Virus genome (UHGV): UHGV-0132372
DNA from: a virus
DNA length: 36,038 nucleotides
Direction: 5' to 3' (one strand)
Below are positions 2,807 through 35,988 of this stretch, one piece after another. The position numbers and the translations under genes are program-made. The notes beneath the pieces are model-generated. The model did no database searches. It had not been told where the DNA came from and saw only the letters and a list, made by a program, of their open reading frames with translations. How positions within the stretch are numbered: the stretch's first letter is position 1; every line of letters begins with the position of its first letter.

Positions 2807-3103
2807 TCAGTCATTACTGATAGCGCCATAGCGTGAGCGGTAATTACGCAGGCGCGGGTCGATATATTCAGGGAAGTGGGTATATGTGGCTTTGCGGAAT
2901 GGTCGGATTGATGTCTGGTAAATTCGCTCGCGTTCTTCTTTCTCTGCAAGCCATATACAATGGCGAAATTCCTTTTCCTCTTTCGTTTCCTGCGGTAGCG
3001 ACATTATCAGGTCGTAGTTTTTTCTGAATTTATCCAGCACCTCCGATACGGAATTGCCGGAACAGCGGCGCGGGTCATCCGCACCATACAGAGGCGCTGG
3101 CAT
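2807..3103 (-). CDS. hypothetical protein (98 aa)
   Basis: ORF track entry in the co-directional operon. Confidence 0.45.
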
Positions 3104-3126: not shown

Positions 3127-3714
3127 TCAGAAAGGAGGGTAATCGTTCTGGCTGTAACCATAATCATCTGCATGATTCTGGCTTACGTTTTTAGAGCGAT
3201 TGTCTTTATCTTTGAGATTGGCAACCATGTTGGCGATAGTTTCTGGTTGCTTGCCTTCTGCCTTTTCTTTAAGGGTTTGACCTGTTTGTGCAATAAACGG
3301 GATGCGTATTTCCATCTGGTAGCTGTCTGCGCCAGTCTTTTTGTTTGTGGTTAATACTTTCTGAAGCACTAACCCGATTTTCTTTCCATGAAATTCAGGT
3401 GCAACAAATTTACTGGCGGAAACCATATGCTGCGTTAATTGTCCAATCCCGGCACACCCCATCATGGCGTGAACGACATTTGCGCCAAATTTGTTTTCCG
3501 TTCCGTCATTTTTCTGAACACAGACGCTAAGATATTGGATTTTACGTCCGTCGTCGGATTCGCCAGAAAACTCAATAAATTTGGCTCCTTTTTCTGATTG
3601 CTTTAGTTCTGCTTCAGTAATGGTAATGATATGAGCGCCAGTTTCGTTAATAAAACCACCTTGCCCTGCGGTCAGTGCTGCTTCTTCGTTATAAGTAAAA
3701 ATCACGTTGCTCAT
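3127..3714 (-). CDS. SSB-like single-strand binding protein (DUF669-like), partner of the Sak4-type ATPase
   Basis: ATGA overlap with the upstream ATPase gene; acidic C-terminal tail ...DDYGYSQNDYPPF resembles the SSB C-terminal tip; location is where the Red/Erf module sits in lambdoid phages. Confidence 0.55.
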   Translation of the reverse strand: MSNVIFTYNEEAALTAGQGGFINETGAHIITITEAELKQSEKGAKFIEFSGESDDGRKIQYLSVCVQKNDGTENKFGANVVHAMMGCAGIGQLTQHMVSASKFVAPEFHGKKIGLVLQKVLTTNKKTGADSYQMEIRIPFIAQTGQTLKEKAEGKQPETIANMVANLKDKDNRSKNVSQNHADDYGYSQNDYPPF

Positions 3715-4391
3715 GCGGCGTTTTCCTTAATTTGATGAACATTATTGATGCCGTAGTAATCACAAACAGTGGCATCGACGAAAGAGAGATCGTTATCAAT
3801 CTCATTGGAATCAAACATTCCCATTGGGGATTTAACAGTGTCTGCACCGTTGTTTTTCGTGGTGAAAAAGAACTGGTCATCGCGGGTAAGAGTGCGAAGA
3901 ACTATAGTAAACATGCCTTCGACAGTGATTTTCTCGTCCAGCATTTTGCCGATAGTTTTCATTTTCACGCGCCCCATAGGGGTTTCTTCGGTGTGCGCAA
4001 GAAAATAGACTCTCAGGTCATCAGGTGCATCCTGTGCAGCCTTAATCACCTCCCATGCGTGGCGGCCTATCTCAGTAAATTTATCAAACGATTTTTCTTC
4101 TGAGCGGCGCATAAACTCATTGCTCATCACATACTGGAAGTCATCAACAATAACGATTCTTTTCCCGTATTCGTGAGCACGCTTAATTACGGCAACTATT
4201 ACGTCCCATTTGTCAGTGGTAACTACGGTTCCTTTTTTTGCTCTGGCATCCCATGCCAGCCATTCTTTTGATTTAAATGGTAGCGGCTTGCCTATTGGTT
4301 TTATAAGTATTGCTTCCTCTGGATTGATATTTCTCATGCTGGTTGATTTTCCGGTGCCAGACTCACCGAGTATTAATGTCGCAGTTCCCAT
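3711..4391 (-). CDS. Sak4-like RecA-family recombination ATPase (AAA_24-like)
   Basis: Walker A GESGTGKST near the N-terminus; ~226 aa; GAGGTGA RBS; sits in the recombination slot of the pL operon. Confidence 0.7.
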   Translation of the reverse strand: MGTATLILGESGTGKSTSMRNINPEEAILIKPIGKPLPFKSKEWLAWDARAKKGTVVTTDKWDVIVAVIKRAHEYGKRIVIVDDFQYVMSNEFMRRSEEKSFDKFTEIGRHAWEVIKAAQDAPDDLRVYFLAHTEETPMGRVKMKTIGKMLDEKITVEGMFTIVLRTLTRDDQFFFTTKNNGADTVKSPMGMFDSNEIDNDLSFVDATVCDYYGINNVHQIKENAA

Positions 4392-4399
4392 AATTCACC

Positions 4400-4588
4400 T
4401 CAGAATGGTAATTCGGATGGGGAGGAAAGAAATTCGCGCTCATTCATGCGCTCTCTTTGTGCTTGCCATAAACAAAGTTGTTTCTTTGATTTATCTCCCG
4501 CTTTACGCCAGTAACGAGCCTCAGCAATGTGATATTCTCTTTTTAATCGACTTAACTCTGGAGTTTTCGCCAGCTCTACCGGAATCAT
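4400..4588 (-). CDS. hypothetical protein (62 aa)
   Basis: ATGA overlap with the upstream small gene. Confidence 0.4.
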   Translation of the reverse strand: MIPVELAKTPELSRLKREYHIAEARYWRKAGDKSKKQLCLWQAQRERMNEREFLSSPSELPF

Positions 4589-4698
4589 TTAGACCTCCAT
4601 TTTCTGTAGGCTTCGACGGCCTCACCAAACATCTTTTCATCGCCAATAAAAGTGGCGATAGTGAATTTAGTCTGAATAGCCATAAGTGTTTTATCCAT
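4585..4698 (-). CDS. small protein, possibly Kil-like (by synteny after cIII)
   Basis: ATG overlaps the cIII stop (AATGGATAA); 37 aa, MDKTLMAIQTKFTIATFIGDEKMF...; the longer ORF-track version (4585..4788) would overlap cIII in another frame. Confidence 0.4.
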   Translation of the reverse strand: MDKTLMAIQTKFTIATFIGDEKMFGEAVEAYRKWRSK

Positions 4699-4837
4699 TT
4701 TTTGGAACTCCTGGCTGATTAAGTACGTCGATGAGTCGTTTCCATCCGTCACGTAATTTACGGGTGATTCGTTCAAGTAAAGATTCATTTAATTGGAAGG
4801 CACCCATGCGAGCGCCTCCCGCGATTGCGTAAATCAT
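4691..4837 (-). CDS. cIII: CIII-like regulator (FtsH inhibitor)
   Basis: Not in the ORF track (48 aa). AAGGAA RBS; translation MIYAIAGGARMGAFQLNESLLERITRKLRDGWKRLIDVLNQPGVPKNG matches the lambda CIII core ESLLERITRKLRDGWKRLID.LNQPGVPKNG. Confidence 0.8.
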   Translation of the reverse strand: MIYAIAGGARMGAFQLNESLLERITRKLRDGWKRLIDVLNQPGVPKNG

Positions 4838-4861: not shown

Positions 4862-5830
4862 TTAGTAGGTTATTTTTGTTGCGAATACTTCGCCTTTTAC
4901 GATGGCTGTTATGATATTTTTAGCAACATCTTCTGATGCGCCAACCTTGATAAGGTCAGCAAGTATTTTGTTATTTACTTCTTTCCGGTGAGCTTTATCC
5001 TTTGCTCTACACTCTTCTTCTTCCTTGATTCTTTTTTCTTCTGCTATTCTGGCTTGCTCTTTTGCTTCAGCCTCGCGCCGGATTCGTTCAGCCTCCTCCT
5101 GTGCTTTTCGGCGTTCTGCTTCAATTGCCGCCTGCTTTTCTCTTTCAGCTCGTTCTGCTGCCTCTTTTGCTTCGCGCTGTGCTCGTTGCTCGGCTTCAAT
5201 GCGTTCACGCTCTGCACGTTCCGCTGCGGCCTTAGCTTCTGCTTCTCGCCTTGCTGCTGCTTCAATTTCGGCTTTTGCCTTTGCTTCGGCTTCTGCTCTG
5301 GCTTTCTCTTCAGCTTCTCTTTTTAAGCGTTCTTCATGCTCTCGCTTTTCCTGCTCCGCTTTGAGTCTTGCCTCTTCTCTTTGGCGGTCAAATTCGCGAT
5401 CCATCAAAATAGCTATTTCATGGTCAGACTCAATTTGCTTTGCGAGAGCTTCAGCTGCTGCCTTAGCTTCTTCTTCGGCTTTAATCCGTGCCTGTTCCTC
5501 CTCATAATCAGTAAGAGGCTGGCGTGCCTTGGATTTCAGCTCATCAAGGCGATCACGCACTGTCTTGCGGTTGGCATCAATTAGCTTTGGAATTTCCTTC
5601 AGTTCAGCAACAAGGTCTTTTCCAAGACCATCGAGATATGTTTTCGTCTGCGCAACTTTATACGCCAGAGAAGCGATCTCCTTTCTGCCCTTTGCCGTTG
5701 TGATATCAGGCACAAAGGACATAACTTCACGTTCAACCTTTTGAAGGATTTCTTCAATCTGGTCGGCAGACTGAAATACAGTCATTGCATTTGCTTTTTC
5801 AATAACAACTAAATCTGTTACTTCACTCAT
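4862..5830 (-). CDS. coiled-coil protein with a long Glu/Ala/Arg/Lys-rich low-complexity core (322 aa)
   Basis: GGAGGA RBS before the ATG at 5830 (the ORF-track start at 5884 is probably an upstream extension); ~180 aa of EAKAKAEAE/RREAE repeats between a globular N-terminal domain and a short C-terminal domain. Confidence 0.6.
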   Translation of the reverse strand: MSEVTDLVVIEKANAMTVFQSADQIEEILQKVEREVMSFVPDITTAKGRKEIASLAYKVAQTKTYLDGLGKDLVAELKEIPKLIDANRKTVRDRLDELKSKARQPLTDYEEEQARIKAEEEAKAAAEALAKQIESDHEIAILMDREFDRQREEARLKAEQEKREHEERLKREAEEKARAEAEAKAKAEIEAAARREAEAKAAAERAERERIEAEQRAQREAKEAAERAEREKQAAIEAERRKAQEEAERIRREAEAKEQARIAEEKRIKEEEECRAKDKAHRKEVNNKILADLIKVGASEDVAKNIITAIVKGEVFATKITY

Positions 5831-5964
5831 ATATCCTCCATCAAAAAAATCGCCCTCACATCGGAGGGCAAAGAAGATTTCCAATAATCAGAACAAGTCG
5901 GCTCCTGTTTAGTTACGAGCGACATTGCTCCGTGTATTCACTCGTTGGAATGAATACACAGTGC

Positions 5965-7535: not shown

Positions 7536-7868
7536 TCAATCGTAATAAGCTGGAATTGATTTTCCGCGTTGCTTCTGGCGGCCTGAGCATGTCACACCCA
7601 TTTCACTGCGTGGCTTGCTGTACCATGTGCGATGATTCTTGCGCTCAACAGCTTCAGCGCGTTTTTCCATCTCTTCCCGATACTCAGCCAGCACCGTTAA
7701 ATCAATCGGGTTCAGAGCGCTTTCTACGCGTGATTTAGGCTTTCGAGTCAGCGAGAGAATTTTGCGGGTGTCTGGCTTGGCGCTTACCCCAACTAACAGG
7801 GGGTTTGCTGCTTTCCATTGAGCCTGTTTCTCTGCGCGACGTTCGCGGCGGCGTGTTTGTGCATCCAT
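7536..7868 (-). CDS. N: antitermination protein N
   Basis: Translation MDAQTRRRERRAEKQAQWKAANPLLVGVSAKP...RVESALNPIDLTVLAEY matches lambda N (Arg-rich boxB-binding N-terminus); AGGAGA RBS; nutL lies upstream. Confidence 0.9.
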   Translation of the reverse strand: MDAQTRRRERRAEKQAQWKAANPLLVGVSAKPDTRKILSLTRKPKSRVESALNPIDLTVLAEYREEMEKRAEAVERKNHRTWYSKPRSEMGVTCSGRQKQRGKSIPAYYD

Positions 7869-9731: not shown

Positions 9732-9752
9732 CTGCTTTCTATGGAGTTAATT

Positions 9753-10553
9753 ATGGCAAAAAAACCTACACCAGACCAGGTAAAAAAGATTCGTTCCGGC
9801 ATTACCAAGAAAATACGGTTTGAGGTTTTCAAGCGCGATGGCTTCAAATGCCAGTACTGTGGGAGTTCTGCGCCAGACGTCATCCTTCATGTCGACCATA
9901 TCAACCCAGTTAGCAAGGGTGGCGATAACGACATGATGAACCTTATTACTTCTTGCGATAGTTGTAATGGCGGGAAAAGCGACAAACTGCTCAGCGATAA
10001 CTCAATAATGGAAAAGCAAAGGCAGCAACTCCAGGAACTTAATACCAAGCGAGAGCAACTGGAGATGATGATCAAGTGGCGAGATGGTCTTAAGAGCCTG
10101 AAAGACGATGTTGTTGATATTGTCGCTACCAAAATTGACGACTGCATTGCGCCATTTACTGTTAATGACAATGGGCGAAAATCTATCAAGAGATGGCTTC
10201 GAATATATAAGCTTGAAGAAATCCTCGATGCGATTGAGATTGCTGCAGACAAAAAACTCACCCAAGAAATAACCCATGAGCTTACTGGTGAATTCTTTGA
10301 GTACATCCCTCGCATAGCAGCGACAAAAAGAAAACCGCCAAAAGAACAAAGGATTCTATACATCAGAGGAATCCTTAAAAACCGCATATATATCAATCAA
10401 AACCATGTAATGAGTTATCTCAAGGCATGGCTTTCATACGACTTAGATCTCGATGAACTTACTGAGTTTGCGAAAACAGTACCTAACTGGACAACGTTCA
10501 AGGAGTGGGTATCTGAACGCATTCGTGAAGCTCAGGAAGAACTCCCGTACTAA
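9753..10553 (+). CDS. HNH endonuclease-domain protein (N-terminal HNH, unknown C-terminal domain)
   Basis: Motif FKCQYCGSSAPDVILHVDHINPVSKGGDNDMMNLITSCDSCN; GGAG RBS before the ATG at 9753 (alternative ATG at 9741); sits where lambda has the start of O. Confidence 0.65.
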   Translation: MAKKPTPDQVKKIRSGITKKIRFEVFKRDGFKCQYCGSSAPDVILHVDHINPVSKGGDNDMMNLITSCDSCNGGKSDKLLSDNSIMEKQRQQLQELNTKREQLEMMIKWRDGLKSLKDDVVDIVATKIDDCIAPFTVNDNGRKSIKRWLRIYKLEEILDAIEIAADKKLTQEITHELTGEFFEYIPRIAATKRKPPKEQRILYIRGILKNRIYINQNHVMSYLKAWLSYDLDLDELTEFAKTVPNWTTFKEWVSERIREAQEELPY

Positions 10554-10564
10554 AGGTGGACAAA

Positions 10565-11452
10565 ATGGCACGTTCAAGAAATATCAAACCAGGCTTTTTC
10601 ACCAATGATGAATTAGCTGAGTGTTCTCCATATGCCCGTCTCCTTTTTGCCGGGTTATGGACTATTGCTGACAAAGAAGGGCGGTTGGATGATCGCCCAA
10701 AGAAAATTAAAGCAATGGTACTGCCTTTCGATGATGTGGACTGCAATGATCTGCTTCAGCAACTTCACAGTCACAAATTCATCAATCGATATCAGGTAAA
10801 TGGCGGCTCATATATCCAAATCAATAACTGGAAAAAGCACCAGAACCCTCACTGCAAAGAAGCGGCCAGTGAGATACCAGAACCAGTAGAGAATAATAAC
10901 AGCATCCTGCAAGTACAGTGCAAGGACGATAAAGAGGAAGAGAAGGAGGATACAGAATCACTTCAAGTCATTGAAAACAATGAAGCACCAGAAAAGCACC
11001 ATGCAAGTACAGTGCAAGAACAAGTTGAGAACAGTTTAAATCCTGCTGATTCCCTTAACCTGATTCCTGATTCCCTTAACCTGATTCCTGATTCCCTTTC
11101 TAACACCCAAGCCGCTGACGCGACTTGTGAAGGGGGTGGGGCTGATGTCCATAAAATTTCAAGTCGCTATGCATTCGAAGGAAATATCGTTCGGTTAAAC
11201 CACAAGGATTACGAAGCATGGAAGCGCCTGTATCCGAACATTGACCTGAATTACGAGCTGGAAAGGCTGGATATCGAATTTAGCCATGAGAAGCCAAAGA
11301 ACTGGTTTATCACTGCCAGCCAGAAACTCAGCTACCAGAACAAGCAGGCGTTATCCAGACCGGTACGCAAGGTTGCTAATGGACTTAAGGCTGAAAACTT
11401 TGCCACCAAGGATTACGGACAAACTGAAATGCCTTCATGGGCGCAGGAGTGA
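10565..11452 (+). CDS. putative replication initiator / replisome organiser
   Basis: Position between cII and the DnaC-like loader; AAAGGTGGA RBS; internal iteron-like DNA repeats encode a DSLNLIPDSLNLIPDSL linker. Confidence 0.55.
   Translation: MARSRNIKPGFFTNDELAECSPYARLLFAGLWTIADKEGRLDDRPKKIKAMVLPFDDVDCNDLLQQLHSHKFINRYQVNGGSYIQINNWKKHQNPHCKEAASEIPEPVENNNSILQVQCKDDKEEEKEDTESLQVIENNEAPEKHHASTVQEQVENSLNPADSLNLIPDSLNLIPDSLSNTQAADATCEGGGADVHKISSRYAFEGNIVRLNHKDYEAWKRLYPNIDLNYELERLDIEFSHEKPKNWFITASQKLSYQNKQALSRPVRKVANGLKAENFATKDYGQTEMPSWAQE
11047..11095 (+). repeat. iteron-like direct repeats (TGATTCC x5; 21-bp unit TGATTCCCTTAACCTGATTCC x2) - candidate ori
   Basis: Direct repeats visible in the sequence, inside the initiator gene as in lambda ori within O. 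Confidence 0.5.
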
Positions 11453-11454
11453 AC

Positions 11455-12300
11455 ATGACGCTGGATGAAAAGATCTCCCAACTGGAGAAAAAACTTGCAG
11501 AATTGAGTTCTCCGCCAATTGCTATCGAGCATACAGCTGTAGAAATTGGCACTGGCATCTGTGAAAAACACGGTGAGTTTGAGCAGCGTAACCGTTACTC
11601 GACTGGGCCAATTAAGTTTGCCTCAAGACCTAGCGAATGCCCGGAATGCATGAGAGATGAGCTTATTCGGCTACAGGCAGAGAAGATTAAAATCGACGAA
11701 GAATCACGTAAGCGCAATGTCGAATTTCTGTTGAATAATCTTGATATTCCTGAACGATTCAAGGGTTGCACACTACAGAACTACGAGCCAGTCAACGACG
11801 ATGCAAAGAGAGTGCTCAGGGTGTGTCAGGCATACGCCAGCAAATGGCCTGAGAGGTTACAGAAAGGCGGTGGGCTGGTTATGTGTGGAAAGCCTGGTAC
11901 TGGAAAGAATCATCTTGCACTGGCTATCGCCCGGCACGCAATTACGGAACATCAAAGCTCAGCTATTTTCACAACGGCGCTGAAAATTGCCAGAGAATAT
12001 AAATCAACATGGTCGAAAAACTCCACCCGCACTGAGGATGAAGTGATCCGACAGTTCACTAAACCTGACCTGCTAATTATCGATGAGGTTGGTGTGCAGT
12101 TTGGAAGCGAGGCGGAAAAGATGATCATGTTCGAAATCATCAACACCCGCTACGAGCGCATGAAGCCAACAATCCTGATTAGTAATCAGAGCAAAGATGA
12201 ACTTTCGGCATTCATTGGTGAGCGTGTTATTGACAGGATGAATGATGGCGGAGGGTGCACTCTTGCGTTTACATGGGATAGTTACAGGAGCAGATCGTGA
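11455..12300 (+). CDS. DnaC-like helicase loader (IstB-like AAA+ ATPase)
   Basis: Walker A GKPGTGKNHLALAIA and Walker B LLIIDEVG; GGAGTGA RBS before the ATG at 11455 (the ORF track starts at 11437). Confidence 0.8.
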   Translation: MTLDEKISQLEKKLAELSSPPIAIEHTAVEIGTGICEKHGEFEQRNRYSTGPIKFASRPSECPECMRDELIRLQAEKIKIDEESRKRNVEFLLNNLDIPERFKGCTLQNYEPVNDDAKRVLRVCQAYASKWPERLQKGGGLVMCGKPGTGKNHLALAIARHAITEHQSSAIFTTALKIAREYKSTWSKNSTRTEDEVIRQFTKPDLLIIDEVGVQFGSEAEKMIMFEIINTRYERMKPTILISNQSKDELSAFIGERVIDRMNDGGGCTLAFTWDSYRSRS

Positions 12301-33798: not shown

Positions 33799-34083
33799 AA
33801 GCTTTCCTACAACAAGTCCGAACATTAAGAACGCAAAGTTCAATAAATCTCTGTCCATAAATCCTCCTGTTTACCAAAACTATATCAAACTTTAACGCAA
33901 TGCTGCGCAACTTAAGTGACTTTCAGGTTGATAACAGACACTCTTTTTTGCATGATTCCTTTAGACCATCACAATTGATGAAGAATCATGAAAAGAAGAA
34001 CTCTTCTAAAGTCTTTGCTCGGCCTGACGTCACTCTTACCAGTTAAGTTTGCAGCATCTCAAAACCTGCAAGGTAAAAGTATA

Positions 34084-35988
34084 ATGTCAGACATTACACC
34101 CAATGTTGTAGTGAGTATGCCTTCGCAACTCTTCACTATGGCTCGTTCTTTTAAAGCCGTAGCTAATGGTAAAATTTATATCGGTAAAATTGACACTGAC
34201 CCGGTAAATCCTGAAAACCAGATTCAGGTTTATGTGGAAAATGAAGACGGTTCTCACGTTCCTGTTTCGCAACCAATCATCATTAACGCTGCTGGATATC
34301 CGGTATATAACGGACAGATTGCCAAGTTCGTTACTGTGCAAGGCCATTCCATGGCTGTTTATGATGCGTATGGGGCGCAACAATTCTATTTTCCAAACGT
34401 ATTGAAGTATGATCCAGATCAATTAGAAAGCAGGTTGTCGGAAACTAATAGTACAGTAATGATATCTGGAGTAACCGCATCAAAAATAGCAAGTAATGTT
34501 ATTGCAACAGAATATCTTGAGTCGCCAAATGTATATGATGTGTTTGTTACGTATGGGCAGTCAAATAGCGCAGGTGAGGCTATTTTATCTGGCGATACGT
34601 CAGGCTTTCCTGCCGCTCTGCCGAAATCACTAATGTATGATTTTAGTGATGGAGCAATAAAGCCAATTATACAGAATGTGGTTAGTTCTTCTGGCGTTGC
34701 ATCATCTGGACATGCATGGGGGGAATTCGAGAATGAATGGTATCGCCTTAGCGGGCGCGGTTCAGTGGAGGTACACTGCGGCCGTGGCGCAACTACCATT
34801 GCACAGCTATCAAAAGGGACCACATACTACACGCTGTTGGTAAATGCCGTGGCGTCAGCTAAACAGGCAATGATTGCCGCTGGTTTGCCTGTCGGTAAAA
34901 CGTACGTGATGTACCACCAGGGTGAGTCGGATATGACGGCAGGGACAACATACAATGCTTATAGAGACAGCTTTATAGCCTTGATAGATGATCTGAAAAC
35001 CGATATTAATTTTGATTTATTTTGTAATTTTACCGTTGGTTGCCCGGGGAACCGAACGGAAGAATCATGGGCTGCTATTCAAAATGCGCAAAGGTGGGTT
35101 TGTAATAGCAAGACTAACGCTGTGACAGTATTTGACGGTTGCCCTTCATTTTTAAAAGGCGATGGCAATATTGGCACTACTGATGGAGGCGTTCACTATA
35201 CGCAACGCGGTTACAATACAATGGGGCGAGAAGGTGCCAGAGGATTATGGTCATTAGTTAAAGGTGGGGCAAGCAATAAAACCTCAACCGATTTAGCACA
35301 ATATTCAAATTTTGCCCCACCGTGGACAAGGGCGAAATTAGTCGCCGGTACTATTAAATACAGCAATGATAACGCTAAATGGGTTCTTTTATCTAAAGAA
35401 GTAAACAGTGAATGGAAAGTTTCCAATGCCCATAAATTAGTTGTTTCTGCTGATGGGGAATATTTTTCTGTAGAAATTGCAGACAATGCCGAAAACTGGT
35501 TTTATGCCGCCGCGGGCGTCGACCGCGCTACAGCTATAACAGGTGTCAGGTCCTACGCAGAACCTCTTCGTGTGGGAAATGCATTCACATTAAAAATTAC
35601 TATGCATGCCGACGTTTCTTTCCTTGTTAATACAAAAACAGGAGTCATTCGTTATGGAAGACCGCCTTCAGGCTCTGGTGTCCCAGAGTGGATTAGAAAT
35701 AATATCTCTGTTTCTGTGGTGAGTGCTGGCATCGTGGAAATAACGCATGGCCGCACTGCAACAATGCCATCAGCAACATATTACGCCACTAGTGACGGAA
35801 CATTATCTGCGGCAAATGTATCTGTATATGCCGGGTCAACCACAACGACAAGAGTTTATTGTGATAAAGCAAACACTGATAATCCCTGGGTGGTTGTTAC
35901 ACTTAGAGATTTACTAATTACTCCTGCCAACATGCAACATTACGATATTTCAATTAACTTTAACGGAATTTATGCGCCATCCGCATGA
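34084..35988 (+). CDS. tailspike: P22-type head-binding domain fused to an SGNH/SASA-like esterase receptor domain
   Basis: N-terminus [12 protein letters not shown]...[23 protein letters not shown]...[13 protein letters not shown]...NVLKYDPDQ matches the P22 gp9 head-binding domain; downstream GQSNSAG and HQGESDM motifs; start placed at ATG 34084 (the ORF track extends to 33988). Confidence 0.8.

Follow-up and report, generated by a model that had tools for sequence, protein, structure and literature searches.

Introduction

The closest described counterparts of the gene pair considered here, sak4 and ssb at positions 3127 to 4391 of the UHGV virus genome UHGV-0132372 (36,038 nucleotides, the whole of which we term the window), are hkaL and hkaK of phage HK620. 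These encode, respectively, the Sak4 protein, which acts on single-stranded DNA (ssDNA), and an ssDNA-binding protein (SSB); RefSeq annotates the former as 'Sak4-like ssDNA annealing protein' and the latter as 'single strand DNA binding protein'. Both HK620 proteins have been purified (Hutinet et al., 2018, Front Microbiol 9:743; PMC5928155). HK620 Sak4 was found to bind ssDNA and to anneal complementary oligonucleotides in an ATP-dependent manner, and to be a poor annealase when alone. HkaK, also termed SSB-HK620 or SSB-2, elutes as a tetramer and shifts ssDNA in two steps like the E. coli SSB, with an approximately 4-fold lower affinity; it blocks both spontaneous and RecA-mediated annealing, and strongly boosts annealing by Sak4 in vitro as well as recombineering in vivo (PMC5928155). 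The resemblance of its terminal NDYPPF to the DDDIPF of the E. coli SSB was already remarked by these authors, who found that deletion of the six-residue tip lowers recombineering about 10-fold, turns the stimulation of annealing into inhibition and abolishes the binding of Sak4 to SSB-coated ssDNA. The two proteins were found to interact solely when on DNA and in the presence of ATP (PMC5928155). The pair is in this sense already known, and it is these very proteins that defined Sak4 as an ATP-dependent, SSB-stimulated annealase.

The recruitment of an annealase via the C-terminus of its cognate SSB is likewise a feature of the RecO/SSB, T4 UvsY/gp32 and Rad52/RPA pairs (PMC5928155), and the reading of SSB C-termini by annealases is an established principle that has already been exploited. 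Unlike the RecO, UvsY and Rad52 mediators, Sak4, as an ATPase assigned to the RecA fold, depends on ATP and loads no separate strand-exchange protein. Among the lambdoid phages, the Red genes of lambda and the arf-erf-abc1-abc2 genes of P22 lie in the same slot of the pL operon, downstream of kil/cIII, as does the HK620-type module. The latter has Abc2 in common with P22, but no homologue of Exo, Beta, Gam or Erf, and its Sak4 annealase is assigned a RecA/Rad51-like fold, as opposed to the Rad52-like fold in Red and P22, and needs ATP and its own SSB.

Identity of the sak4 gene and its junction with ssb

The pair in the window matches that of HK620 almost residue for residue: its Sak4 is identical to HkaL at 226 of 226 positions and its SSB to HkaK at 193 of 195, with the last 30 residues unchanged, while the DNA of the module is 98.2% identical to that of HK620 over 2 kb. 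The likeness extends to the NDYPPF tip, the ATGA-type overlap between the two genes and the flanking hkaM, kil and abc2 genes; HK620 differs in the rest of the phage, namely in N, the immunity and replication genes and the cIII-N region. As the protein identities, the DNA identity and the gene order all match, we regard it as very likely that the pair belongs to an HK620-type homologous-recombination module, consisting of hkaM, sak4, ssb and abc2, and that it works as published.

The sak4 gene, the hkaL homologue (3711..4391, minus strand; N-terminus MGTATLILGESGTGKST), encodes a RecA-core-only ATPase. Its translation places a Walker A motif, GESGTGKS, at residues 9-16 (G9-S16; 4344..4367, minus strand) and a Walker B-like motif, IVIVDD, at residues 79-84 (I79-D84; 4140..4157, minus strand), within a short protein of 226 residues that is without the RecA C-terminal domain. 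Profile searches matched it over its full length to PHROG 2872, 'Sak4-like ssDNA annealing protein' (E=3e-108), and, with a marginal pass, to Pfam AAA_24 (30.0 bits, the gathering score being 27); a sequence search of the PDB with Sak4 recovered no relative. An earlier note on this DNA, made from the letters alone, had proposed a Walker-A ATPase of the Sak4/RecA-like type, and it is indeed to Sak4, rather than to an unrelated family, that the protein is assigned.

The RecA-like core with its Walker motifs might also be taken to make Sak4 a true strand-exchange recombinase of the RecA type, which carries out strand invasion with its SSB, the more so as Sak4 and SSB together raised crossover recombination 20-fold in a recA host. 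That level, however, is 500-fold below the one provided by RecA in vivo, and the 226-residue Sak4 is without the C-terminal secondary DNA-binding domain of RecA. Moreover, neither joint molecules nor exchange products appeared in vitro when Sak4 was combined with either SSB, and RecA was not affected (PMC5928155). This reading has thus largely been refuted in vitro already, and we deem it very improbable; an ATP-dependent annealase is the preferred description.

The gene downstream, ssb, the hkaK homologue (3127..3714, minus strand), encodes the SSB of 195 residues (C-terminus NHADDYGYSQNDYPPF). The stop codon of sak4 and the start codon of ssb overlap in an ATGA (3711..3714, minus strand; sequence GCCGCATGAGCAAC), an arrangement that suggests translational coupling of the two genes, and sak4 is itself preceded by a Shine-Dalgarno sequence, GAGGTG. 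That both are real genes, as opposed to chance open reading frames (ORFs), is strongly supported. In IMG/VR, a sak4 gene lies upstream of an HkaK-type ssb at 73 of 80 loci, and the junction has a zero gap in 70 of the 73 loci that have both genes. Since the loci recovered from IMG/VR are mostly near-identical copies, which say little on diversity, a scan of GTDB genomes was used for the latter; sak4 is likewise upstream of ssb in most of the 30 diverse genome loci, which come from Enterobacterales and Pasteurellaceae.

Predicted fold and family of the SSB

The 195-residue protein matches PHROG 743, 'single strand DNA binding protein' (E=6e-67). An AlphaFold2 model, built from an alignment of 51 sequences of SSB relatives from Enterobacterales, has a mean predicted local distance difference test (pLDDT) score of 79.6 and a predicted template modelling score of 0.75. 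Its core, for which the pLDDT by blocks is 80-94, comprises predicted strands at residues 26-39, 45-53 and 58-67, a helix at 75-88 and further strands at 92-99, 112-123 and 130-140. Past the last strand come two short helices, and the tail then drops below a pLDDT of 50 from residue 177 onwards. When the model was searched with Foldseek, PrgE was recovered as a neighbour (E 1e-3), and among viral models the best matches were DUF669 proteins and the SSBs of N4-like phages (E 6.5e-13 to ~1e-7). As the neighbours of the model comprise OB-fold binders of ssDNA together with DUF669 proteins and N4-like SSBs, we place the predicted core (approximately residues 24-140; 3295..3645, minus strand) near the PrgE/DUF669/N4 group, as an OB-type core to which the canonical SSB appears to be only distantly similar. 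The DUF669 (PF05037) and N4 SSBs have in common with it this divergent OB-type core and an acidic C-terminal tail; the N4 SSB differs in acting in replication and transcription rather than together with Sak4. PrgE of the Enterococcus plasmid pCF10 (PDB 8S4S/8S4T) is only 13-14% identical in sequence to the SSB, and it binds both ssDNA and double-stranded DNA as a filament assembled monomer by monomer via its N-terminal tail (PMC11137577), unlike SSB-HK620, which is a tetramer that forms two sequential complexes with ssDNA.

HkaK and the DUF669/N4 SSBs have been viewed as highly diverged OB folds (Hutinet et al., PMC5928155; Kazlauskas 2016, PMC4889955), and the OB fold of HkaK-type SSBs is a point of disagreement in the literature. 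The match to PHROG 743, the OB-type core in the AlphaFold2 model and the near-identity to HkaK together uphold the proposal of the earlier note that the neighbour of the ATPase is an SSB, as well as its expectation that an OB fold would be predicted. The protein appears to function like an SSB, although its sequence does not place it in the bacterial SSB family.

Nothing contradicts the HK620-type identification of the pair, but several caveats attach to it. First, a Pfam search with the SSB returned no family at E<=0.1, and DUF669 (PF05037) gave no match even at E<=10. Second, the two differences from HkaK, E153 in place of V and N165 in place of S, would call for some caution; in the model they fall beyond the predicted core, in a region of helices (148-153 and 159-166). 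Third, the part played by the pair in the phage life cycle is a putative one.

The first of these points also bears on how the family assignment was reached. The earlier note had pointed to both AAA_24/Sak4 and DUF669/SSB profiles; the ATPase matches its profile, while the SSB fails to match DUF669 of Pfam. The DUF669 model was matched weakly by 12 of the 51 SSB relatives (best E 0.0052, under any curated threshold), and close relatives of the SSB are named 'DUF669 domain-containing protein' by NCBI. The SSB families of Pfam and NCBIfam gave no match to the window SSB, sequence searches of the PDB with the SSB alone and with the 51-sequence SSB profile found no relative, and a search of NCBIfam with the four proteins of the module yielded nothing useful. 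Because the DUF669 model misses the protein, its assignment as an SSB is founded on the match to PHROG 743 in combination with the modelled fold and the published biochemistry. A link to DUF669 is suggested by the modelled fold in conjunction with published remote-homology analyses (PMC5928155, PMC4889955).

The company of the viral structural matches raises another reading, namely that the 195-residue protein is primarily a replicative SSB of the phage, with its link to Sak4 being secondary. DUF669 proteins have been proposed as replication SSBs in viruses that have no other SSB (Kazlauskas 2016, PMC4889955), and N4-like phage SSBs are among the closest matches in the viral models. However, the ssb gene of the window overlaps sak4 in the pL recombination module, outside the replication module. 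The latter encodes an initiator and a DnaC-like loader (10556..12300) and, by analogy with other lambdoid phages, would use the replisome proteins of the host. The affinity for ssDNA, about 4-fold under that of the host SSB, also speaks against a primarily replicative function, as does the reassortment of the same SSB type with other annealases (RecT), always within recombination modules. We therefore hold it quite unlikely that replication is its primary role, and favor a recombination SSB coupled to Sak4.

The C-terminal tail and its partners

The predicted disordered tail of the SSB, residues 177-195 (3130..3186, minus strand; VSQNHADDYGYSQNDYPPF), has three acidic and no basic residues, and it ends in NDYPPF (3130..3147, minus strand, as read from the codons), the Sak4-recruiting motif, which is the same as the HK620 tip. 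Against the DDDIPF of E. coli SSB, it has the Pro-Phe end and one Asp in common and fewer acidic residues. The earlier note had likened this end to the acidic tail of the bacterial SSB, and the likeness holds inasmuch as the tail is predicted to be disordered, acidic and aromatic, with a terminal Pro-Phe; the note was right in seeing an SSB-like tip on an SSB coupled to Sak4, which had already been published in 2018. More generally, SSB-HK620 resembles E. coli SSB in being tetrameric, in binding ssDNA and in using a disordered Pro-Phe-ending tail as a handle for protein recruitment.

We surveyed the tail across 116 full-length representatives of sequence clusters of the relatives. The terminal Phe is found in 106 of the 116, and 65 of those 106 have the penultimate Pro; the last 12 residues have medians of three acidic, three aromatic and no basic residues. 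In certain Xenorhabdus and Pasteurellaceae relatives, the tail closes with DFDDDIPF, which is exactly the tip of E. coli SSB. Near-identical alleles paired with Sak4 vary between PPF, PAF (8 loci) and PSF (2 loci), so that the penultimate Pro is not strictly needed in the pairing with Sak4.

These data bear on the reading offered by the earlier note, that the tail makes the protein an SSB mimic which could compete for the clients of the host SSB. In its strong form, the tail would mainly mimic the host C-terminus and capture such clients, RecO, ExoI, PriA, chi and RecQ among them, or compete for them, and so hijack or inhibit the DNA metabolism of the host. The tip does retain the Pro-Phe-COOH end with the upstream acidic residues of E. 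coli SSB, to the point of the exact DFDDDIPF in the above-mentioned relatives; the related ssb gene of PA73 is toxic in E. coli; and SSB-HK620 partly substitutes for the host SSB in strand exchange by RecA in vitro (PMC5928155). Yet Sak4 is the only partner for which dependence on the tail has been demonstrated, with the six-residue deletion removing most of the stimulation of Sak4, and the last six residues have one acidic residue as opposed to three in E. coli SSB. The penultimate Pro is critical for partner binding by E. coli SSB, as seen in ssb-113 (P176S). Since this position is loose in the phage protein (PAF in 8 loci, PSF in 2, Pro in 65 of the 106 Phe-ending relatives), its conservation is unlike that expected from selection for the pocket of the host interactome. 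Mimicry as the main function of the tail is accordingly improbable in our view, and we would give a similarly low probability to it being a significant additional function. The recruitment of Sak4 is the function that we assign to the tail.

Variation of the tip in relation to the annealase was found at seven IMG/VR loci (L075-L081; L075:1294-3588), which encode an HkaK-type SSB that is 87-88% identical over residues 1-189. Here, the SSB lies downstream of a RecT annealase (Pfam RecT E=2e-24) and a YqaJ exonuclease (E=3e-28), and it is followed by a DUF2303 gene, with neither Sak4 nor abc2 at the locus. The tail of these RecT-linked SSBs reads DDPGYWQYGG(D/S)(N/S)F, as against DDYGYSQNDYPPF in the Sak4-linked SSB, and their tip takes the form DDPGYWQYGGDNF. 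At the DNA level, the two kinds of ssb are ~88% identical from the start to about codon 182, whereas the last 13 codons are ~60% identical, as estimated by eye, and both flanks are unrelated. A clean mosaic swap of the tail was considered and rejected, for the tails are of equal length and partly alignable, which looks like local divergence instead.

A co-adaptation of the tail with the upstream partner is not proven by this pattern, because the downstream flank is unrelated as well. One may nonetheless conceive of the tail tip as a swappable specificity code that selects the annealase and possibly host SSB clients too, a proposal that we put forward as rather doubtful. Were it true, the SSB would both select its partners and potentially compete with the SSB of the host. 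A survey from 2025 has also found SSB-2 with another type of annealase and guessed at a 'shuffling of partner interaction domains' without analyzing it; covariation of the tail with the partner, as an extension of this known work, is plausible but unproven. For the design of recombineering and for the interplay of phage and host, the engagement of host SSB clients by the tail and the tracking of tip and annealase would hold modest interest.

Separately, at least eight ssb copies were observed in a metagenome-assembled genome of Candidatus Phlomobacter fragariae, an insect- and plant-associated symbiont (L097-L103, L109). Their SSB tails end in EFNPFP or EFNPFS, one residue past the Phe, and each copy has a YqaJ-like neighbor. 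These are possibly multiplied or decaying prophages.

Proposed mechanism

Taking the published biochemistry together with the organization of the locus, we posit that leftward transcription of the module would start from pL, with antitermination by N. Sak4 would bind ssDNA and anneal complementary strands only with ATP, while the co-translated SSB, probably a tetramer with an atypical OB fold, would coat the ssDNA. Once on DNA, the SSB would expose its disordered NDYPPF tip, and this tip would recruit Sak4 to the SSB-ssDNA complex, such that what is otherwise a barrier to annealing becomes a platform for loading. Abc2 would in turn bind RecC and re-tool RecBCD, so that a host enzyme might provide the resection that Exo gives lambda; we infer such a division of labor between the pair and Abc2/RecBCD. 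During infection, the system may serve in phage recombination or in recombination-dependent replication.

Genomic context and distribution

The genes of the region run leftward in the order N, cIII, kil, hkaM, sak4, ssb, abc2 and ead/Ea22-like genes, with the N-like antiterminator at 7536..7868, cIII at 4691..4837 and kil at 4585..4788. This order, leftward from N through cIII/kil, agrees with the claim that the pair occupies the slot of gam-bet-exo in lambda. The wording that it stands 'in place of Red' holds for the slot and not for a pure replacement, as the exonuclease is absent and a P22-type Abc2 is kept: no ORF in 2807..4788 matches Exo (YqaJ/lambda exonuclease), Beta (RecT/Red-beta) or Gam. 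The module closes with abc2 (2807..3103, minus strand), known as hkaJ in HK620, which encodes this P22-type anti-RecBCD protein (Pfam Anti-RecBCD_p2 E=4e-63; PHROG 656 E=1e-56). It opens with hkaM (4400..4588, minus strand), a 62-residue orphan ORF that lies 8 nucleotides upstream of sak4. Its product matches PHROG 1723, 'recombinase' (E=2e-33), and it accompanies sak4 in 73 of 73 close loci. HkaM has been described as an orphan of unknown function (Hutinet et al., PMC5928155), and the 'recombinase' label looks like an annotation by position.

Of 5,426 complete E. coli genomes, 187 have the 1,265-bp pair, which is chromosomal in every case and, for 185 of these genomes, 95-99% identical. The pair was further recovered from 379 phage records, among which are many Stx-converting phages. 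In the top-listed E. coli genomes (H38-H42 included), RefSeq labels the two products 'ATP-binding protein' and 'hypothetical protein'. Automated pipelines thus under-describe a characterized recombination system, because the current DUF669 model of Pfam no longer recovers the SSB. The practical value of the present identification accordingly lies in annotation, and little of it in discovery.

The window as a whole is a mosaic lambdoid phage, or prophage, of E. coli and is P22-like (Lederbergvirus-type). Beyond the module, it encodes a cI-like repressor and replication genes, and extends through DNA-transfer (ejection) genes to the tailspike gene; the best single phage record spans at most 39% of its first 25 kb.

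Some other genes of the window are worth recording in their own right. Between cIII/kil and the N region lies an ORF of 340 residues (4862-5884, minus strand), which is absent from the HK620 annotation table. Its product has a long central coiled-coil-like segment rich in E, A, K and R, and its sole matches are to PHROGs with no assigned function (phrog_1376, 21365, 17211), with none in Pfam. Further along, between the cro/cII region and the genes for the initiator and the DnaC-like loader, an ORF of 270 residues (9741-10553, plus strand) has an HNH-endonuclease-like N-terminal region (phrog_16986 and several HNH PHROGs). Finally, the tailspike (33988-35988, plus strand; 666 residues) has a head-binding domain, at residues 33-165, that strongly matches the top tailspike PHROGs, while residues 254-419 show a much weaker match to a tail fibre (phrog_4201, E=5e-16); its receptor-binding part may hence be of an uncommon specificity type.
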